DNA from: Vezdaea acicularis
Lineage: Eukaryota
DNA length: 64,000 nucleotides
Assembly (NCBI GenBank): GCA_026025075.1
Contig: JAPEUI010000025.1
Coordinates: forward strand, 1 to 64,000
Reading direction: 5' to 3'
Shown: positions 541 to 29,271 of the stretch, piece after piece
How positions within the stretch are numbered: the stretch's first letter is position 1
Layout of the letters: each line of letters starts with the position of its first letter
Notes under the pieces: generated by a model
What the model was told of the DNA's origin: nothing
Databases searched by the model: none
The model's input: only the letters and a program-made list of their open reading frames with translations
Made by a program: the position numbers and the translations under genes

Positions 541-3500
541 TTATAGCAGTTGCCACAACTGCGGTTCTATTGGACTGTCTTCCTGCAGTCCTTCTTCTTC
601 CGGTAGAGCTTCAAATTGGTCTAACGGAGCTGCCACCGCGTGATTTGGATTGTTTTCACTACCGTAAATCCGTTTACGGCCTGGCCCCTTGGGCATCCGC
701 CATCCGCGAGTTACTCTTCCTTCAACTCGAGCCTGTTTTAGCCGATCACCACCTACAAGGAGCTCTAACTTCTTCTTCTGAGGAGTCTCTAGCTCGTATG
801 TATTCAATGGCATAGCTCGACGGACTCGGTAGGGTCCAAACCATTTACCTTGCCACTTCAGCTGATTCTCCGCCCGTACCAGTACATAGTCATCCGGTTT
901 GTACTGGATAGGGGTAATAGCTGCGTCCCATGCTTGCTTGTTCTTTAAGGCACGTTCTTCTGTGTTTCGTAAAGCTTCCATACGGAGTGTTTCAAATAAC
1001 GGAAGCTTGTCCTCCCGTACATTGTCCGTCAGTAGAGTTATCCCATTCTCGTCTATTGGTAATCTAGGTTGGCGTCCGTAAAGCATATAGAATGGTGAAA
1101 AACGGGTAGTACTATGCGTACGGATACGTGCCGCAAACAATGCTTGATCCAGATACCGGTCCCAATGAGAACGTGGCCGGTTGAGCAGGTACTTTGTCAG
1201 CATGTTACCTAACGTTCCGTTAAGACTTTCAACTGCTCCGTTTGTCCGTGGGTGATAAGGAGTTGTTCCCCTATGCTTGACATTTAGTTTAGACAAGAAT
1301 TGACTCATTGCCGGAGCCCATAGGTTCCGTCCTTGGTCCGTCACAATCTCCTTTGGAGATCCGTAATGCATATAGAGTTTGTCATGAATGAACTCAGCTA
1401 GGGCTTCTGCTGTAGCATCCGGCACTGCTTTTGCTACTGGCCAACGGGTTGCATAGTCAACTGCTGTAATGATCCAGCGGTTGCCGGACGGTGTTTTAGG
1501 GAGTCTGCCAATGAGATCTAATCCCCAACGGTCAAACGGTTCAATCCGTCCACTCCATTGATGTGACGGATGCTGAACATCAGTGTGCAACCCCTGACGG
1601 GACCGTCCTGCTATTTGACAGTCCGTACAGTGCCGTACATAATGCCTTATATCTTTGCGCATTGTTGGCCACCATCCCCGTGCACTAACTAGGTTTAGCA
1701 ATGTCAACTCATTGCTGTGACCATAGTCCTTATGCAGACGGTCCAATAGATCAGCTCTTGCCCATAGGGGTAAGTAGTCAATCCAGTCCGACTCTGGTGA
1801 ATCTCTGTGACAAAGAGTTTCCATAGCTATTGTAAACTCATGTGCTCTAGAACGGAGCATATGATCAATGTTCTTGTCACCTGATAGCTTGCCGGACTCT
1901 AGATAGTCCGTCATATAGTCCGTCCATTCCAAAACATTAAGTTCAATGTTATGCAAGTAGTCAGGACGTCTTGATAGTGCATCCGGCACCGTCATTAGCT
2001 TTCCGGATTTGTGGATTATCTTTAGATTGTACTCCTCAAACTCTTCTATCCACCGGCCTAGACGTTTGGAAGGCTTACGGGTTGTCTTCATGTACTGTAA
2101 CCCTTCATGATCTGTCCGTACAATAGTTGTATGTCCGTTCTCAATGTAACAACGCCAAGCACGTAAAGCTTGCTTGATTGCCAATAGCTCCTGTTCATGT
2201 GTTGGATAACGGCTTTCTGCCGGATTGAACTTACGGCTTTCAAAAGCAACCGGATGTTCCCGTCCGTCAGCCAAGTTTGTCTGCAACAATGTAGCTCCGC
2301 ATGCATAGTCTGATGCATCCGTTTCAATGATAAAAGCTCTTTTAACATCCGGTTGTTGCAATACTGGCGCGACGGTGAGGCATTCCTTTAGTTGACGGAA
2401 ACTCATCTGGCATTTGGCATTCCATACTATAGGCTGATGTTTATGTCCGCGAGTTGCTTCCGGCAGCTTAAGCAGCTCATGCATTGGTGCTGCAATGCGT
2501 GCAAACTCCTTAATAAACCTCCGATAGTATGAGCATAAGCCTACAAATTGACGGACATGATGAACTGTCCTAGGAGTTGGCCAATCTTTGATGGCTGCTA
2601 GCTTATGCGGATCCATACGGACTACGCCAGCTCCGACAATGTGTCCGCAAAAGTCCACTTCCGTTTGAAAGAAGGAGCACTTGTCTGGCCGTGCAAACAG
2701 GTTGTTTTCTAACAAGATCTGCAATACAATCTTGAGATGTTCCATATGCCCCTTTTCATCTTGACTATAGATGAGGATGTCATCTAGATAGACAACCACA
2801 AATTTGTCTAGACATGACCGTAAAATGTCATTCATAAGCGTCTGAAAGGTTGCCGGAGCATTGGTTAATCCAAACGGTAGTACACGGAACTCAAACTTGC
2901 CAATACGGGTATTGAAGGCTGTCTTTGGTATATCAGCATCCGCCACACGGATTTGCCAGTAGCCTGACAGTAGATCAACCTTTGAAAACACTTTAGCGGA
3001 CCCTATTTGATCCAAACAATCTTGTATCTTTGGTAACGGATAGCCGTTCTTGACGGTCACATTGTTTAATGCCCGGTAATCAACACACATCCGCCATGAA
3101 TCATCTTTCTTCTTGACAAAGAGTACTGGAGAACCCCAAGGTGAATGAGATGGACGGATAAGATCCCGTTCTTCTAGGTAACGGATCTGTCGGGCCTGTT
3201 CCTCTAACTGTTGTGGAGTCAGAGTATAGGCACTCCTATTGATAGGACATGCATCACCCGTATCAATGTGATGATCCACATAACGCTTTGGCCCTACCCC
3301 TGTAGGTAGTTCAGTACAGAATACTTTCATTAACGGTCCCAACTCTTCCTTCAATGACTCAATGTTCTTGCCGGACTTGTCCGTCAGCTTGTCGGATGTG
3401 TCTCCGTCTATCAACATGTATAGAACTCCTTGCCCCTTATGTTGTAACGTCCGTCTGACGTTCCGCCATCCGCTAGCTGGTATATGATTATACTCTAATG

Positions 3501-4146
3501 TTAACGGATGTGCTAATGAGTCATAAAGAGCATGCTCATAGCTGTCCTGCTGAATAATGAGTCCGCAAGCTTTGTAGTCAATAGTTGGTTGATATTGGCG
3601 GAAGAAGTCCATGCCTAGGATGATATCATATTGCGCCAGATCAATGACAATAAATGTAGCTTTATCTGTAAAGGTTTGGATAGTAACTGTGCAGTTTACG
3701 GTCCCGTAAATCTGCAATTGGCTGCTGTCCGGCAGCCTAACCCCTTTATGCCCCTTTAAAGGCATAATCTTCAGTCCGGCAGCATCACTTGTGCTCCGTC
3801 TGATATACCGTCTTGACGCTCCTGTATCTGCTAGTATTCTTATGGTATGTCCGTTCACATTGCCGTTAAATACTAACAGATCAGCGTCTGCTCTGTCTCT
3901 TATGCTTAGGAGTTGATCAAGCTCCTCTATTGTCTCCCCATGGGTCTTTCTATTTTGTTCTTCAATCTCCCGTTGTCTGGCAGAATCGGACACCGCCAGA
4001 GGCCTGCCGCAAGCTCCGGAGATTTCTATCCTTCCGTCAACTTCCTTCTCTAAGTTGCGGGTACTCTCTGTAGATATGGCCTGTAGAGAAGGCGCCATAC
4101 TTGACTTAGATAAGAGCGCCAACTTATCTAAGTCCTGTAGTTTTTT
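541..4146 (-). CDS. pol: Pol polyprotein (aspartic protease, reverse transcriptase, RNase H, integrase with GPY/F module, no chromodomain), reached by -1 frameshift from gag
   Basis: Protease [35 protein letters not shown]; RNase H ETDASD; integrase H-x4-H...CTDC, DLIG/TDQG/NGAVE; WFGPY. The frame is open upstream to the slippery site at 4140-4146. Confidence 0.96.
4091..4146 (-). promoter_or_regulatory. -1 programmed ribosomal frameshift signal: A AAA AAC heptamer, 5-nt spacer, 12-bp stem and predicted H-type pseudoknot
   Basis: Minus strand reads CC-A AAA AAC-TACAG-GACTTAGATAAG-TTGGCGCT-CTTATCTAAGTC-AAGTAT-GGCGCC. A -1 shift joins gag to pol. Confidence 0.9.
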
Positions 4147-5105
4147 GGCCCTTGTGGCCTAGAGTTAGTCCGTTCACCAACTCTTCCTGTCGGACAGTTC
4201 CGAGCAATATGTCCTGGCTTATTGCACATAAAGCACAACCCCTTTCGTCGTTGGTCCGTCTTCATAGAAGGGCGTACTGGACCTGTCATCATTGACAGAT
4301 CCATAGGTTCCGGACCATAATATGGTGTTGGCGGACCAAAACCAGGACTGTCGGATCTTCTTGGTTGCTTCTGATATCGGTTATTGGGTTGACGGGGCTG
4401 AAACGTCTGAACGTTAATGCCTTCAGCTGCGTCCGCCAGCTGTATAGCTGCTGACAGTGTCACTGGTTGGGCACGTTGCACATCTATTCTTGTACGAGGC
4501 TGCAGTCCTTGTACAAAACGTGATACAGCAACTGGTTCAGATATGTTGGTATGAACCACTGACCATAACCTAGTGAAGGTTTCAATATATTCCCGTAAGC
4601 TCCGTGAGCGTGTACTAGCTTGCGTTATAGTGAAGAACTGCTCAAGCATCTTGTTGTTGCTATTGACGTCTTCAAAACGGGCTTTGAATGTCTCCTTAAA
4701 CTCAATCCAGTTATCTGACGGACTTTGAAACTGATTGCCAGCTATGGTCCGGTACCAGAACTGAGCATTGTCCGTAAGATATTGTGCTGCATAGATGACT
4801 TTTAGCTTAGAGTCTATCTGTGCTAGCAGGAGATACCGTTCCATCTTAAAGAGCCAGTTGTTGGCTCCGTCAGTATCCCTTTTGGCTCCGTCAAACTTTT
4901 CAGGGGCCTGCAACTTGGGTTTGTTGCCTGATGCATTGAGAAGCTCAATGACAGTGGCCGTATCCAGTGTATTTCCGTTGTTTGAATTCATATTAGGCGT
5001 TGACGGAGTGTCAATGGGTGGCTCTGGTGTTGACGGAGTACTGAAAGCTCTTCCACCAAAGCCAAACACGTTAGGGATGCCAAGATTACCGTCCGACGAT
5101 GCCAT
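4128..5105 (-). CDS. gag: Gag (retrotransposon capsid plus CCHC zinc knuckle)
   Basis: 325 aa with PEKFDG..., AQFWY, [16 protein letters not shown] and [14 protein letters not shown]; lies directly upstream of pol. Confidence 0.95.
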
Positions 5106-5223: not shown

Positions 5224-5635
5224 TGTAGTTGCGAAGCCGCTGAGCTCGCGGTTACGGGGGCTCGCCTCTATAGGCGAGCCTGACTAAGCGGTACGTACAC
5301 GGTTGCTAACTTTTTCGGTAAAAAGCTTGCAATTGAGTTTCGCCGCCGTGCCGCGCGCACGATCGGGCAAACCAAAACGAACGAACAACAAAGGCCATTT
5401 TTGCGCGGAAGCAGACAGATGAGAGATAAACCGACGAGGGGGGGGGGCATGGGGAGTTTTCTGCCTGATGAGATGGGAGAGGGGGACCCGCGTTTCAGAG
5501 ATGGGATTTTGTTTTTGAATTTGAGGGATGGCGGCGTAAAAATGTAATTGTGAGCGGAGACGAAAAAAATGTGAAAACACATGTGAAGAAGGACTAATCC
5601 TCTTCACGAAGCGCACGGAATCACGAAATGTCACA
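5224..5635 (-). repeat. Putative 5' LTR (~412 bp)
   Basis: Minus strand TGTGACA...ACTACA gives TG..CA termini, directly followed by the PBS. The outer end could be 5635 or 5637. The partner LTR is not in the window. Confidence 0.65.
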
Positions 5636-23856: not shown

Positions 23857-25837
23857 ATGAACGGCGATAGCTACTCTTCTAGAGGCATGGCTCCAACATC
23901 AACAAAACCTCGCAAGCCTTTGGAGACTGGTACTAACATTAAGACTGAAGCAGATGCTAGATATGGATCATCTCGCGACGCATATGTAAGTCACCAGAGG
24001 ACAATTCCTTACCCTTTAATGAACTTCTGGACACAGTTGCTAATAAAATTTTAGGGTCGAGGAGACCGAGACGACCGACGGGATCGAGACCGCCATAGAG
24101 ACAGCCGACGACGCTCTCGTTCACCAGGCCATGGCCATAGATCATCTCGTCGGGATACGGAGGTAGATTCTTATTCGTCCAGCCGTGACTACAGAGCGAA
24201 AGAACGAGAAGAGAGATACTCAGGGCGAGACCGTCGGGATGGCCGAGACGACCGAGATTGGGACAGGGACCGAGGATACTCACGGCGAGAAGCTCGGAGA
24301 GACGATGATGACAGACCTCCCAGAAGAGATAGGGATCCATTTGGTGAAGATCGACGAGGCGGACCGCGACGTGGGCCACGGGATGATTTCGGCGGAGGAG
24401 CAATGGGCGGCGGCGGTGGTGGCAGAGAGCGAAAGAAAAGCATGAGCCCTCCACCAAAGAAGAAAGAGCCAACTCCAGACTTGACGGACATAACGCCTGT
24501 ATTGGATCGAAAGCGAAGGTTGACACAATGGGATATCAAACCACCAGGCTACGAGAACGTTACCGCTGAACAGGCGAAGCTTTCAGGTAAGAATCTCAGC
24601 TAGAGAATCAATATCTTGATTACTTGATGTCAAAGCTAATCAAACTTTTTCTTAGGCATGTTCCCTCTACCAGGCGCTCCACGACAACAACCAATGGACC
24701 CTAGCCGCCTCCAAGCTTTCATGGCCCAGCCCAGCGGCGCAGCTACCAATACAGCCCTGAAGCCTTCTAACGCCAGACAGTCCAAACGATTATTCGTCCA
24801 CAATATCCCCGCCTCTGCTACAGAAGAGAGCATCATCAACTTCTTCAATCTGCAACTGAACGGTCTGAATGTAATTGAAGGCAGTGACCCCTGCATCTCC
24901 GCGCAACTATCGAAAGATCGCGAGTTCGCCCTCCTCGAATTCAAGCAATCTACCGATGCCACCGTCGCCCTAGCTCTAGATGGCATCTCAATGGAAGAGA
25001 ACGATGCTATGGAGACGAGTAACGGCACGGCCAACGGCTCCTCAAACGGCCTTTCCATCCGCAGACCTAAAGACTACATCGTCCCGTCCTTCGCGGACGA
25101 TACGCCCATGGAAGAGGGCGGCGTCTCCAGCTCCGTGCCCGACACCCAGAACAAAGTCAGCGTAACCAACATCCCGCCATACCTCAGCGATGAGCAAGTG
25201 ATGGAACTGCTCGTCGCCTTTGGCGAACTCAAAGCCTTCGTACTCGTCAAAGACCGGTCGACGGACGAAAGCCGCGGCATCGCCTTCTGCGAATACACCG
25301 ACCCAGCCTACACCGACATCGCCGTCGAAGGCCTTAACGACATGGACATCGGCGACCGCAAACTGCGCGTCAAGCGCGCCAGCATCGGCAACCAGCAAGC
25401 CTCCGGCCTTGAAATGAGCGTCAACGCCATGAGCATGCTCGCCGGCACCACCTCGCAGGACCTCGACGAAGGCCGCGTCCTGCAGCTCCTCAACATGGTC
25501 ACCGCCGAAGAACTCATCGACCAGGACGACTACGACGAGATCTGCGAGGACGTCAAGGAAGAGTGCCAGCGCTATGGCCCCGTCCTCGACATGAAGGTGC
25601 CCCGCCCCACTGGCGCGAGCAGGCAGGCCGCCGGCGTCGGCAAGATCTTCGTCAGGTTCGATACGCCCGAGAGTGCGGGCAAGGCCCTGAGGGCCCTCGC
25701 GGGCAGGAAGTTCGCGGATAGGACCGTCGTCACGACGTTCTTCTCTGAGGTGAGTCCCGTTTGCTTTTTAGGCGCCGTCAAAAGTATGCTTGTTGCTAAC
25801 GCTGTTGCAGGAAAATTACGAGGTCAATGCATGGTAG
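23857..25837 (+). CDS. U2AF2: Splicing factor U2AF large subunit (U2AF65/Prp2/Mud2 family)
   Basis: RS/RD-rich N-terminus, ULM RKRRLTQWDIKPPGYE, two RRMs and a UHM (GVGKIFV..AGRKFADRTV). Exons 23857-23884, 23954-23985, 24055-24586, 24656-25749, 25811-25837. Confidence 0.95.
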
Positions 25838-26271
25838 GGGAGATGGAATTGGGGATCTGTTACTTAGTTCCGAAAGATCTTCCAGGGAGAGTCTACATGC
25901 CACACTCGCCGTGCCAACATCCATCTAGGGCCTCAACGGCTACTTCTACCTGGGCTGTTTCAGTGGCTCTACAGGTACTCCTTTGTAATTCTAGGACGCG
26001 TCACCATTTCACACAAATGCAAGCAAGCGGGCTCTAAATAAATGGGGTGATCAAAAGAATGTGTTTGTGCTTAGTATGCAAGAAGAAGAGCAGGGACTAA
26101 GTCCCCAATGTGAGGGGGAGAGACACAAACGCAAATGATCGTGATGTATCCATGCAAACAAACGACAGAGCGATTGCCCATTCGCTGTGGAATAAGGGCT
26201 CCTCCGCCAAACCCAAAACCCCGAGACCCAAACCAAAACACCTGGAAGAGTCCTCCCTTTTATTCCCTTAA

Positions 26272-26434
26272 TGTTGATGCCTTGAATGCCTCAGCAGGCA
26301 GTTTGTCCTTAACCTCTGTAAAGTTCATATTCGAGTCCTGAGTCCCTCCCTCCCTTCCTTCCTTCCTTCCTTTCACGTCGATGGCGTGAACGCCTCAGCA
26401 GGCAGCCTGTCCTTGACCTCCTCGAATTTCATAT
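26272..26434 (-). repeat. Diverged direct duplication (~59 nt, 104-nt offset) of the last mex67 codons, separated by a CCTT-type microsatellite
   Basis: 26376-26434 encodes MKFEEVKDRLPAEAFTPST; 26272-26330 encodes MNFTEVKDKLPAEAFKAST. Confidence 0.85.
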
Positions 26435-28027
26435 ATGCCGCTTGCAGGTTCCAGGCATTGTCATTAAGACACTCCCCTGAGAACTGCAGCGTCATGCCGG
26501 TGAGGTAACTGAGATCAATCGCCTTCCGTTCTTGGTCGACTTGATCCTCTGTCTTGTCGGTAGTCGGCACGCCGAAGCCCTGGGGGATGATGGGCTTAGG
26601 TTTGGTTTCGGCAGAGTTGCTAATGGTGGTCAATTGAGGGAACCACAGCTGTAGGGTTGTTCCGAAGGCTGGGTCGTTCTTCTCGATCGGGTTGTTTTGG
26701 AGGTAGATAAGTTCGAGTTTGGAGAACTTGTTCTTCCAGTAGGAGAGTGCCTTCAGGTCTGGGATGCAGTTGTCTGAGAGGTCTAGGTTCTTCAGACCTG
26801 GGAATTGTTGTGATAGTGATATTATGGTAGAGACGGACGGGATTGCATTTGAAGCGAGTGTGACGCTTTCGACAGCCGCGTCCCTCTTCTCGGTTGTAGG
26901 GAACGCGTCATCGAAGACGACCATGAGTGCTTGGAATAGCTTTGAGTGGCTGGTGCCATTGAGGTCGAACAAATTCTCGTCCTTGAGTGCAATGAGGGCT
27001 TCATCTTTTCCCAATGCAGCAAGATCTAATAGCTTGCTAGCTGGGTTGAATCGGCGATCGAGAATTGACTTGAGAACCGCTTTGGTTGAAATCTTCGGCG
27101 TTTCTGACTTGAGCAGTTCGGATTTGTCATTTTGCACCTGGTGTAAGGTTAGCATTGGGGGGACTTAATTTGAGGGTACGCGGAAGACTTACTCTTGGTG
27201 AGCGTTTGTTCACTTCTTCGATCAAGAGCACCGCTCCCGCGAACGTGAATTTGTTTAGGCGAAGAACTTTAGAAGTGTCCTCTTGCTTTAGGTAGATGAC
27301 AAATGCATCACCTTCACAGAATGACTGCACAGAAAATAGATCAGTACACCTCGTCAGTGTCGGACGGCGGGTCCTAAGGAGGCATGGCCAGAAAGTCGCC
27401 AGGCAGCTCTTGTGGTCATCGTTCTGAATGTAGCAAAGTAACGATAGTGACCTAGAAGAGTGGGCTTTGTTCCTGCTGCCTCCTATGCTGGTGAGAGCAT
27501 CGGCAACGTACCTTCTGGATCTTGGCGGAGTGGGGTGACTCTCGGTTTCCAGTGGCTTTCCGCTCGATCCAAGCGCTGAGGGATGCACGGCCAGCGTCAG
27601 GGCTATCTGCGATCTTGCTGTCAAGGTATCCCCGAATGGCGACACGATCCATTTCAGCCAGCGGTGATAAAGACCTTTGACGTGTTCTCGGTCTTGAATT
27701 GGGGGCTTCTTGGCGTGTTCTCGGACTTAGGTTGAAACGTTCTTGGGCGGCTTCGTCTTGTAACGCTCTCTTGAGGGCGTTGCGATTTGCAGTGGAGAGT
27801 GCCCTTTGGGGACCTCCGCGAGAGTGATGCTCTGAGGTGCTCCGCCCGCTACGATGTTTGAGTAGACCTGTCGCTGAACCGCCCATGTCGACATCGCCAT
27901 CTCTGTCAACTCTTGTTGAGGCTCTACCGGGGCGCTTCTTGTCAACGCCTCGACCGGAGAGACTGGCTTTGTGGCCCAGTTTGGATCTTGAGTGTTGGAG
28001 CTTCGAGAGATTTTGATTGCTCGACAT
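26373..28027 (-). CDS. mex67: mRNA export factor Mex67/NXF1 (470 aa): basic N-terminus, RRM-like, LRR and TAP-C/UBA, with no NTF2-like domain
   Basis: RVDRDGDVDMG, LRLNKFTFAGA, RRFNPASKLLDL, LRRs (SVTLASNAI, LKNLDLSDNCI, LIYLQNNPI), TAP-C TGMTLQFSGECLNDNAWNLQAA..LPAEAF. Exons 28027-27512, 27324-27193, 27137-26373. Confidence 0.88.
27377..27484 (-). other. Extended imperfect RNA hairpin inside mex67 intron 1
   Basis: Nested complementary blocks: AGGAGGCA/TGCCTCCT, AAAG/CTTT, CCA/TGG, CTCTT/AAGAG, GGTC/GACC, ATCGTT/AACGAT, closing a 16-nt loop. Confidence 0.65.
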
Positions 28028-29271
28028 CCTATTTTTACTTTCTAGGGGGCGATTCAGGTGGAGGTGGTGCGTAGTTGTGTAAGGGTAGGGAGATTATGAG
28101 CGGCTTCGCTTGAGGAGGTCGTGTGTGTAATTGAGGTTTGTGAGAGCGTACAAGAACGAGCGCGTTGTGTGATTGTATTGTGTGTGTGTAGTGCAAGAAC
28201 GTTTCGTGTAAGTGTGGTTTGAGAACGTATTGTATAGAAGTATTGTGAGACCGTGACGTGAGCGTGAGCGTGAGAACGTGATTTGTAAGCGTGTAGCGAG
28301 AGCGTGACGTAGCCGTGCTATTGAGTTGGCAGAGACTTGAGAGCGATGGATCTGAGCGGAAGCGGCTGTGTGACTGGAATTGGGAGAGAGCCGAGAGTGT
28401 GAGAGGTTTTGCAAGCGGACTTGTAAGTATCAGTACGCTTGCACAGAAGTTGCAGTAGAAGCTGGCCAATAGCGACTGTGTTTGGCAGTAATTTTGCTTC
28501 GACGAGTTGGATGGTGGATGCTTCTTGCTGCTTTCTGCTGGGAGAATATGTAGGAGAGATGGAGGAAAAGGGCAGGGGGTCCTGCCTTTATAGTCGGTGG
28601 ATACTCGCTGTACCAGCCATTTTTTATTAGCTGCATGGCGCTATAGACGATTTAGCGTTTATTACTCACAAAATTTCTGCCTTGTCGCCCGAAAATACAC
28701 CCTTCCGGCTCAGAGCTCTTTCCTTATTCGGGGTTTCTAGGCCGCTAAGCACCACGCATGTGACGGCCGTGACAGCTGCAAGTGTGCTCGAGGGCGCGCA
28801 GCGCGCAGAAGCATGTGAATTTTCGGAGAGTCGGGTGAAGGAGAGGGTGATGAAGAAGGTATAATGGGTGATCGTGAGGTCTGAATCACAGGGTTGAGGC
28901 TCTGTCGTAAGGATGTCTGATTAGTGGCGTAAATTATCTGCCGGTCTCCGCAAGAGGAATGGCGTGACAGGGGTGAGATCGCGGGTGAGACATGGGCCAA
29001 AAAACCGAAAATGTGGCCTCTGGATGAGGTACTCGAGACGAAATATTGTACGAGTACAGCAATGCATTAAGAATTCTTGATATCTGAGCTATTGGGTCTC
29101 AACAGTAGCTTGGCCTTTCTCATGTCTCGGCGTTGAATCGTTAATTTACGTGCAGTACGAGCTTCTCAGGGGGATTACCTCGCGCGGTTGTCTCTGCGAC
29201 GAGCTCTCCTTCACACTCGGACGCAGTACCCTGACAGGTCATCCAGCATCATATACGATTGAAATATCAAA

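Follow-up and report, generated by a model that had tools for sequence, protein, structure and literature searches.

A Mex67-like gene with a long intron in its RRM

The window, a 64-kb stretch of a Vezdaea acicularis contig (JAPEUI010000025.1, positions 1 to 64,000), carries a Mex67-like gene on the minus strand, with a start ATG at 28027. Exon 1 (27512..28027, 172 codons) encodes a disordered N-terminus and the first half of the RRM. Intron 1 (27325..27511; 187 nt, phase 0, GTACGT...CAG) splits this domain, and exon 2 (27193..27324, 44 codons) supplies its second half. Intron 2 (27138..27192) has a length of 55 nt and is not shared by canonical genes; the loci compared with named proteins read through that point. 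Exon 3 (26373..27137) encodes the LRR and, immediately after it, the TAP-C/UBA domain, as indicated by Pfam and by alignment, neither of which detected an NTF2-like domain in frame in this exon.

In tblastn searches, exon 1 aligned with canonical mex67 loci over their N-terminal and RRM regions, up to residue 172, and exon 2 was 34–67% identical to these loci. Pfam was run exon by exon, so that the RRM of the window scores only as half a domain: exon 1 scanned alone gave no match, and exon 2 matched RRM_9 (profile positions 33–69) with 18.8 bits, under the cut-off of 25.9. The gene in the window is a derivative of Mex67 that evolves fast and has no NTF2-like domain. RNA evidence came from a single contig (run X7; 206 nt, 26858–27063), which lies in exon 3 alone and covers neither a splice joint nor an intron. 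One contig of a relative (X5) spans 26380–28200 and differs by 105 substitutions and by 3 indels that all lie outside intron 1, and a further contig (X9) covers 27220–27426 with 2 differences.

This gene model agrees with the original prediction, which had placed an intron of 187 nt at 27325..27511 in a mex67 gene. The prediction had also described the intron as about three times the length typical of this region, which holds against intron 2, the sole intron of the window that was compared.

Predicted fold of intron 1

RNAfold reproduced the two elements that had been predicted in intron 1, namely a 108-nt rod of nested stems and internal loops (27377..27484, minus strand) and a small 5-bp hairpin, AUGCU/AGCAU, adjoining the donor (27485..27500) in the minimum free energy (MFE) structure. 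The basal stem of the rod comprises 8 bp (27484–27477 with 27384–27377), and the same arms were reported by an inverted-repeat search. At the apex of the rod lies a core hairpin (27414..27452) composed of the stem GGUCA/UGACC, a 3-nt bulge, the stem UCGUU/AACGA, and a 16-nt loop. The MFE structure contains two further small hairpins within 27346..27374 (27374–27362 and 27360–27346), which separate the rod from the branch region, and a small hairpin was found in the same place in introns of other clades. A candidate branch site (27340..27345), located about 16 nt upstream of the acceptor, was assigned by sequence inspection as CTRAY-like, following the fungal branch-site consensus.

When intron 1 is read through, the open reading frame (27452..28093) gains 19 codons and ends at a TAG (27454–27452), the first in-frame stop, which shares one base with the start of the core hairpin. 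The resulting product has 191 aa, exactly as had been predicted.

The stability of this fold was compared with that of shuffled sequences. The whole intron had an MFE of -54.5 and a z-score of -1.09, with 27 of 200 shuffles equally good, and the opposite strand had a z-score of -0.58. The rod alone reached a z-score of -3.33 (0/200 shuffles), a value that is selection-biased because the bounds of the rod were picked post hoc. Compared with the best 108-nt segment of each shuffled intron, the z-score was -1.70 and 17 of 300 shuffles were equally stable; this null is, if anything, too weak, since segments were taken at step 3 in the shuffles and at step 1 in the real intron. The original prediction had regarded a folding energy no better than that of shuffles as evidence against itself, and after correction for the bounds the energy was indeed no better. 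Taken without comparison to relatives, the stability of the window's fold is only marginally beyond chance.

An intron at the same codon boundary across Pezizomycotina

Relatives were collected by an alignment-based scan of metagenome contigs, which yielded 73 mex67 loci, 50 of them scorable at the intron site; a scan of metagenome contigs with one protein alone found no relative. An intron was located exactly at the codon boundary of the window's intron 1 in 48 of the 50 scorable loci, and in 47 it was at least 161 nt long. The exceptions were two loci without an intron at this site and one with an intron of 53 nt. In canonical genes, the phase-0 boundary lies within the RRM, with ...K-I/V-x-K before the intron and S-R-x-E-G-D after it, and the residues of the window (...KIQK and SFCEGD) match this site. 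After clustering (~90%), 26 of the 28 clusters had introns of 161–214 nt, one of 350 nt, and one of 53 nt, with a median of 185.5 nt against 187 nt in the window.

Named NCBI proteins were compared with six loci. Five aligned in exactly two pieces, the gap between which was the RRM intron, and no other intron was found in the coding sequence; for example, a Penicillium canescens protein aligned with its locus (L053) with a gap of 187 nt. At the sixth locus (L018), the alignment crossed the intron in one piece. By position, intron 1 of the window is the orthologue of this long intron, and it may well be a copy of an ancient long RRM intron, of ~160–215 nt, of Pezizomycotina mex67 genes. The rod singled out by the original prediction is probably inherited architecture and no local oddity.

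A conserved core hairpin in mex67 introns

The RRM introns of mex67 carry a core hairpin of ~40 nt, which in many cases caps a longer rod and, in canonical introns, lies 50–69 nt from the donor. A nhmmer profile of the core found seven loci outside the training set with E-values of about 1e-10. A covariance model (R1) found 33 loci at E ≤1e-9, mostly training sequences or their duplicates, and every match was inside the intron. Mean pairwise identity across 36 pairs was 0.78 in the core, with limits set post hoc, against 0.64 and 0.68 in the flanking exons and 0.58 in the remaining intron. In canonical genes, the bases of the bulge and the loop of the core are near-invariant.

Pairing within the core was assessed in two sets of sequences; one alignment (A7), in which part of stem P1 is misaligned, was left out of the pair counts. 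Among 18 sequences, 91.7% of cells pair in the hairpin, and the covariation score was equalled by shuffles in 108 of 500 cases. Among 25 sequences, pairing was 85.0% (matched by 5/500 shuffles), six pairs had changed on both sides (18/500), and the covariation score was 0.201 (16/500); in this test, kinship alone can raise related sequences above shuffles even where no structure exists. As the core barely varies, covariation is weak. The variation that does occur consists mostly of G:U in sense orientation, a pattern that favours RNA over a DNA palindrome.

The flanks of the core were examined in the same manner. Cognate 5' and 3' flanks pair at -21.1 kcal/mol against -16.9 kcal/mol for non-cognate flanks, and of 2000 clade-level derangements, 1.25% attained the cognate mean. 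Flank pairing was not found in an Aureobasidium-like clade and in one Dothideomycete clade. In the window, the flanks pair at -28.9 kcal/mol; among non-cognate partners, 2 of 20 and 1 of 20 did as well or better. RNAalifold on MAFFT alignments recovered the stems of the core and did not recover the outer arms of the rod region, and folding of 27 whole introns gave a mean z-score of -0.23, with a z-score below -2 in one of them.

Position, length, and sequence are conserved, and they are compatible with a hairpin on the sense strand. The alignment of orthologous introns across Pezizomycotina, proposed with the original prediction, thereby bore out the site, the length, and a core hairpin where the apex of the rod lies; the covariation that had also been sought proved just modest.

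A probable copy of the core in the window

The candidate core of the window is offset by 59 nt from the donor. A stems-only pattern, composed after the window sequence had been seen, had one match in the 64 kb (27452–27414) and a single match, always intronic, in each of 21 of the 73 loci. In local alignments with 18 real cores, the window element reached a maximum score of 16, attained by 4 of 1000 shuffles, and a mean score of 11.0, attained by 1 of 1000; among 1358 chunks of the window ranked by local alignment to the cores, the chunk from the intron was first. Models built without the window gave a different result. Covariance model R1 had no match in the 64 kb (gene region, 3.7 bits; E 1.9), the window element was not among the 10 matches of covariance model R2 with filters off, and a nhmmer profile assigned it 2.2 bits, seventh in the window-wide list. 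Judging from its sequence, the rod apex (27452–27414) is probably a diverged copy of the conserved core of mex67 introns. Both stems are kept in this copy, and the near-invariant bases of the bulge and loop are changed; given these changes, the element of the window may be relaxed or retargeted.

Comparison with known RNA families and motifs

A search of Rfam 15 with positions 26000–29000 of the window (E up to 10) returned two matches, neither of them in the intron. At the gathering threshold, the only match in sixteen loci was Afu_298, located elsewhere in its locus (L004). With E up to 10, the intron of one locus (L001) had two matches far below the threshold, and that of another (L022) had none. 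A search to rule out a snoRNA had been suggested with the original prediction, and no snoRNA or other family matches.

Several other identities were considered and rejected. As regards a box C/D snoRNA, TGATGA was found in none of 27 introns, CTGA was missing in 10 of the 27 and had no fixed place, and no Rfam snoRNA reached the threshold. By eye, neither an ACA or H box of an H/ACA layout nor the tandem G–A pairs of a K-turn were seen. Use of a conserved CAG for a poison exon was discarded, as no branch site together with a ~28-nt downstream mini-intron was found, and the spacing is far too long for a Zn-cluster DNA site. AAGACA is the internal-loop motif of the constitutive transport element (CTE), where it lies in an extended stem; it occurs in 0 of the 27 introns, including that of the window, from which the original prediction had correctly reported it missing.

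Discussion

The conserved hairpin at one old intron site suggests, from sequence comparison, a control element not described before. Our main reading, to which we assign a probability of about one half, is that the hairpin would be a cis-acting element of the pre-mRNA that binds a factor, sets the removal of the intron, and so gives feedback on the export receptor; the rod and core of the window are probably a new cis-regulatory intron element of this kind. According to this model, an ancient mex67 intron, fixed at one codon boundary of the RRM, would carry a conserved RNA hairpin. A putative factor would bind the hairpin in the pre-mRNA and thereby set the efficiency of intron removal, unspliced transcripts would meet a stop codon and be lost, and the outcome would be feedback control of the export receptor. 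Action at the RNA level, in splicing or retention, the feedback, and the factor's identity are the inferred parts of this model.

The main receptor for mRNA export is Mex67/NXF1, and the control of its level is poorly understood outside vertebrates. Three traits of the element are unusual: the core is conserved above the neighbouring exons, its intron is the sole one in the coding sequence of canonical genes comparable with named proteins, and this intron has been kept at about three times the usual fungal length in Eurotiomycetes, Dothideomycetes, and lichen-type lineages. It offers a concrete and easily testable handle on the control of the export receptor in moulds amenable to genetics, Aspergillus, Penicillium, and Aureobasidium among them, and the hairpin would add a candidate RNA family that is not listed in Rfam or in two fungal screens (for PMC8216456, the main text).

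An unlikely account is that of an ordinary long intron, in which the stems form a "zipper" that aids splicing by bringing the donor and the branch site near each other, the conserved blocks are non-regulatory signals of splicing efficiency, and the rod of the window is largely due to chance. Zipper stems are known from long yeast introns, the outer arms vary by clade and yet still pair, as an architectural stem would, and the fold of the window is only marginally significant after correction. This account leaves unexplained the persistent length of the intron, its being the sole one kept in the loci compared, and the conservation of the unpaired bases of bulge and loop above the level of the exons.

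Binding of the hairpin by the RRM-LRR of Mex67 itself appears less probable still. The hairpin would then be a CTE-like element by which the receptor senses its own level and exports or blocks its unspliced pre-mRNA, a fungal analogue of the NXF1 intron 10, which is kept in a polyadenylated mRNA that leaves the nucleus and whose CTE the receptor binds directly through its RRM-LRR. The vertebrate precedent (PMC4338338, available part) lends this idea some appeal, as do the presence of a conserved structured element in an intron of an NXF-family gene and the near-invariant bulge and loop bases, which a sequence-specific protein site predicts. However, similarity to the CTE in sequence or motif (AAGACA in 0/27 introns) and any Rfam match are lacking, the position and size of the intron differ, the retention product would lack a whole RRM-LRR and leave no counterpart of "small Nxf1", and the factor might be one of many other RNA-binding proteins. 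By analogy, and at similarly long odds, filamentous ascomycetes could have independently evolved an intronic RNA sensor, convergent with the NXF1 intron-10 CTE, in which Mex67, alone or with a p15-type partner, would bind the hairpin and divert the unspliced pre-mRNA from productive splicing, so that the export machinery would regulate its own abundance; the domain-poor paralogue of the window would keep a retuned copy.

We consider it improbable that the rod gives rise to a small non-coding RNA hosted by the intron, whether snoRNA-like, Dicer-derived, or a stable intronic RNA. A rod-like hairpin of 100–120 nt would suit a processed hairpin, as would a core whose 3' strand is conserved, and the window has, by chance, a C-box-like word and two CTGA words, but the searches described above, with no Rfam match, no TGATGA, CTGA absent or variable in place, and no H/ACA layout by eye, argue against it. 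Action of the blocks as DNA, in an intronic enhancer or internal promoter, is highly improbable: conserved sequence close to the gene's 5' part would fit, as would inverted repeats that could conceivably bind dimeric factors, but the mostly G:U-compatible variation of the sense strand amounts to A–C mismatches on the other strand, and four nested or adjacent pairs of complementary blocks suit an RNA fold.

The reading as a cis-acting pre-mRNA element invites comparison with known systems. Structured RNAs of fungi have been screened by Li and Breaker 2017 (PMC5640933) and by Gao, Jones and Rivas 2021 (PMC8216456), and the latter reported intronic structures in Pezizomycotina, such as those in the introns of lysyl-tRNA synthetase and metacaspase genes. 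The mex67 hairpin resembles these candidates in being a conserved intronic or UTR structure of Pezizomycotina found comparatively; the terms "mex67" and "export" are absent from the main text and three supplement files of PMC5640933 and from the main text of PMC8216456. Our literature search found no paper on an intron element of mex67 or mexA, and the available parts of PMC13490950 and PMC3192866 contained nothing bearing on it.

The CTE of vertebrate NXF1 lies in intron 10, between the LRR- and NTF2L-coding exons, in an intron of 1.8–4 kb; the available part of the source (PMC4338338) places it in mammals, zebrafish, and coelacanth and does not contain "fung" or "yeast". Its viral counterpart is the CTE of MPMV (PMC5170612, available part). 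Like the CTE, the mex67 hairpin is a sequence-conserved structured element in an intron of the export receptor's own gene, conserved beyond what is usual for introns, and the reading frame is cut short when the intron is retained. In contrast to the CTE, the mex67 intron lies inside the RRM, measures 161–214 nt (187 nt in the window) as opposed to the 1.8–4 kb given in the available part of PMC4338338, and shows no similarity in sequence, motif, or Rfam family; its retention product would contain only half an RRM and no complete RNA-binding module. By these comparisons, the mex67 intron element is no homologue of the CTE. What endures of the original prediction of a structured, CTE-like regulatory intron is the conserved structured element, whereas the analogy fails as homology in position, size, and motif.

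YRA1, DBP2, and RPL30 are yeast genes of RNA-binding or export factors that carry autoregulatory intron elements. Further examples are RPL22B (PMC4838235) and SUS1 (PMC4691836) in yeast and an intron element of a plant DEAD-box helicase (bioRxiv 10.64898/2026.01.23.701338), as described in the available parts of these sources. The mex67 element differs from these in its unrelated sequence and fold, in its occurrence in Pezizomycotina rather than Saccharomycotina or plants, and in its factor, which is only putative. It shares with them an unusually long or conserved intron that contains an RNA structure and belongs to a gene for an RNA-handling product, and the logic would match, in that excess product would lead to less productive splicing.

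Conservation of the RRM-site intron in mex67 genes

An alignment-based scan of metagenome contigs yielded 73 loci with Mex67 relatives (L-numbered), and a single-protein scan yielded none. The intron site was scorable in 50 of them; in the remaining 23, the site lay off the contig (four), the LRR start was lacking (one), or the exon start was unrecognised by the search pattern (18). An intron was located exactly between the motifs ...K-I/V-x-K and S-R-x-E-G-D in 48 of the 50 scorable loci and was missing from L046 and L048. All but one of these introns were at least 161 nt (47/48), the exception being that of L050 (53 nt). The 48 introns comprised 35 distinct sequences and 28 clusters at ~90% similarity, with lengths of 161–214 nt in 26 clusters and of 53 and 350 nt in the other two (median 185.5 nt, versus 187 nt in the window).

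Comparison with named NCBI proteins showed that, in five of six loci, the protein aligned in two pieces separated by the RRM-site intron, with the remaining CDS uninterrupted; the alignment at the sixth locus (L018) ran in one piece straight through the intron. Because the named proteins align with that single gap, the alignments indicate that the canonical genes in the loci compared have no CDS intron other than the RRM-site intron, and the 55-nt intron 2 of the window gene was not common to these genes. According to the nearest named protein, the loci included Penicillium (L053; 99% to P. canescens), other Eurotiales, an Onygenales-like lineage (one locus), Aureobasidium-like and Myriangiales-like Dothideomycetes, an additional Dothideomycete clade, and a group ~50–55% identical to Trapelia and Rasamsonia proteins with no class named. 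The conservation of an orthologous intron across Pezizomycotina that the original prediction called for was thus observed in its site, in its length, and in a ~40-nt block located 50–69 nt from the donor.

In the Aureobasidium-like loci (L018, L019 3186–3191; L030–L032), the conserved intron begins with GTACAC, a weak donor, which would be consistent with splicing that is inefficient or regulated. Among Mex67 proteins predicted automatically from assemblies, many were ~490–550 aa and without the RRM_9 domain; because the intron is long, gene callers may have missed exon 1.

Structure of the conserved core

The first nhmmer profile of the block (hereafter, the core) recovered it in seven loci outside its training set (E about 1e-10). 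A covariance model built from 18 sequences with the window excluded (R1) matched 33 loci at E ≤1e-9, all inside the intron and most of them training sequences or duplicates; untrained loci gave E 0.0038 (L024) and 0.11 (L027), and no match was obtained in Aspergillaceae, L012-type loci, and L029, where the block was more diverged. With core bounds set after viewing the alignment, mean identity among nine clade representatives was 0.78 in the core, compared with 0.64 and 0.68 in the 120-nt exon flanks and 0.58 in the rest of the intron.

Most introns had a common hairpin in their minimum free energy fold, in which a 5-bp stem is separated by a 1-nt bulge, one G:C pair, and a 3-nt bulge, in that order, from a 6-bp stem closed by a ~13–17-nt loop. 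In the 18-sequence set, 91.7% of cells were paired and two pairs changed on both sides, and the covariation score was reached by 108 of 500 shuffles. In 25 sequences including Eurotiales, pairing was 85.0% (5/500 shuffles as high), six pairs were double-changed (18/500), the covariation score was 0.201 (16/500), and slid partners paired at 20–63%, with the caveat that relatedness of the sequences alone can beat shuffles in such counts. Covariation in the core was modest, and in the smaller set it did not exceed that of shuffles. Most variation in the hairpin was G:U on the sense strand, which favours a core acting as sense RNA rather than as a DNA palindrome.

RNAalifold recovered the core stems and nothing beyond. 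Eurotiomycetes and the group with no class named had an additional complementary block pair around the core and a small hairpin adjoining the branch site. Alignment-free modelling supported pairing of the intron flanks, with −21.1 kcal/mol for cognate flanks versus −16.9 kcal/mol for between-clade swaps and with the cognate mean reached in 1.25% of 2000 clade-level derangements; the effect was carried by some clades and the window and was absent in two clades. The whole-intron z-scores were unexceptional, averaging −0.23 across 27 introns, one of which was below −2.

The mex67-like gene of the window

The gene model on the minus strand comprised an ATG at 28027, exon 1 (28027–27512; 172 codons), intron 1 (27511–27325; 187 nt, GTACGT...CAG, phase 0), exon 2 (27324–27193; 44 codons), intron 2 (27192–27138; 55 nt), and exon 3 (27137–26373). 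A Pfam scan, for which each exon was searched separately instead of the spliced protein, detected the second half of the RRM_9 profile in exon 2 (18.8 bits, under the cut-off) and NXF LRR and TAP_C in exon 3. Because the NTF2-like domain (PF22602) is present in each of the 26 longer homologues found and the window protein cleanly skips it in frame in the homologue alignment (A1), with the LRR directly abutting TAP-C, the gene is a Mex67 derivative that has RRM, LRR, and UBA but lacks NTF2L.

The gene is fast-evolving: the terminal branch of the window protein was 1.61 (median 0.14) with unsure placement in a tree of LRR segments, and its sole close database protein was the window's own 260-aa call. 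DNA near-identical to the window was found in moss-metagenome runs. A roughly 94% identical relative in run X5 covered 26380–28200 with 105 substitutions and three indels, none in intron 1, so that its intron 1 is also 187 nt. Among the 40 exon-3 differences listed up to position 26958, 29 were at third codon positions, and the codon changes were synonymous in 28 cases and non-synonymous in 10; this predominance indicates that the truncated gene is under purifying selection. The gene is consistent with either a domain-poor paralogue that remains functional or an orthologue that has diverged. The single RNA contig matched (run X7) lay within exon 3 only.

Further Mex67-like genes without the NTF2-like domain were found in metagenome contigs (L043, L045, L051, L056, ~2900–4300; L057–L060), their proteins being ~30% identical to the window protein; one group had an RGG-rich linker and an RRM that is uninterrupted at the conserved intron site, and another had just an RGG-rich N-terminus ahead of the LRR. 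Near the window gene, a 68-nt direct repeat (26263–26330 and 26367–26434; 78% identical, 104-nt spacing) copies the last codons and stop just downstream, with a GGAA-rich stretch between copies. The 5' leader region upstream of the ATG (28200–28330, minus) is rich in short CACG/CTCA-type repeats. The convergent neighbour (24640–26034, plus) is an open frame encoding two RRM_1 domains plus an occluded RRM, which by eye we take to resemble a U2AF large-subunit-type splicing factor.

A probable copy of the core in the window intron

Both the small hairpin (27500–27485) and the nested rod (27484–27377) attributed to intron 1 by the original prediction were present, the rod having an 8-bp basal stem. 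Comparison with shuffles did not bear out an unusual folding energy: the whole intron gave z −1.09 (27/200 shuffles equally good; opposite strand, z −0.58), and the rod alone gave z −3.33 (0/200) with bounds chosen to fit the stem, its stability being matched in 17 of 300 shuffled introns when the best 108-nt window of each was taken (z −1.70). The fold of the window intron by itself is not remarkable.

The window and canonical introns share an identical site and phase and a similar length. The hairpin at the rod apex (27452–27414), 59 nt from the donor, keeps both core stem sequences around a 16-nt loop, has A:U instead of the consensus single G:C pair, and lacks the 1-nt bulge. A stems-only pattern, composed after viewing the window sequence, matched once in 64 kb, at this hairpin, and, in 21 of the 73 loci, once each and only within the intron. 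Local alignment of the window intron to 18 real cores gave a maximum of 16 (4/1000 shuffles) and a mean of 11.0 (1/1000), and the intron-bearing chunk ranked first of 1358 chunks covering both strands of the window. R1 did not match the apex in the whole 64-kb window; in the 1.8-kb gene region, the apex was its best match, yet weak (3.7 bits, E 1.9). The apex was not among the 10 matches of a broader model also built without the window (R2, filters off), and nhmmer scored it 2.2 bits over the 3' half only (9/1000 shuffles as high; seventh window-wide). We consider the rod apex a probable diverged homologue of the conserved core (probability about 0.7–0.75), a copy with the stems kept but without the near-invariant bases of bulge and loop.

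Putative function and relation to known elements

Identity with a snoRNA or another known family found no support in Rfam: window intron 1 had no match at E up to 10, and no family fitted the mex67 introns searched. TGATGA occurred in none of 27 introns, and CTGA was missing from 10 of 27, with no fixed position elsewhere. A C-box-like word in the window intron was rejected: it results from a local substitution, and the consensus itself is no C box. A box C/D snoRNA match in L004 (Afu_298; 5465–5538, minus; 42.4 bits, threshold 40), ~2 kb downstream of the mex67 intron, is unrelated to it.

The conserved intron length, its status as the only CDS intron in the canonical loci compared, core conservation exceeding that of exons, and conserved unpaired bases lead us to propose the hairpin as a putative cis-acting element in the RNA, at which a sequence-specific factor would bind and tune splicing efficiency. 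As originally predicted, retention of intron 1 in the window reaches an in-frame TAG (27454–27452), giving a 191-aa product. Among the 28 cluster representatives, the intron contains an in-frame stop in 26 and shifts the frame in the other two; unspliced mex67 RNA would therefore be non-productive, which would fit feedback control such as is known from several yeast genes whose products handle RNA. Mex67 itself is an unlikely candidate for the putative factor. Genetic tests would be easy in A. nidulans, since mexA is described in PMC3192866 as non-essential and paired with a p15-type partner.

Our literature search found no description of a mex67 intron element. The words 'mex67' and 'export' were absent from the main texts of two fungal RNA screens (PMC5640933 and PMC8216456), and three supplement files of PMC5640933 held no mention; the scope for PMC8216456 was its main text.

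The original prediction likened the element to the constitutive transport element (CTE) of NXF1 intron 10. A point in common is a conserved hairpin in an intron of mex67; the viral CTE loop AAGACA, already claimed to be missing from window intron 1, was indeed absent there and occurred in 0 of 27 introns. PMC4338338 describes the vertebrate CTE, reported from mammals, zebrafish, and coelacanth, as lying in a 1.8–4-kb intron that separates the LRR exons from those for NTF2L, whereas the fungal intron lies elsewhere in the gene and is unrelated in sequence. The mex67 hairpin is placed as a new candidate among conserved structured intron elements in genes for RNA-handling proteins.
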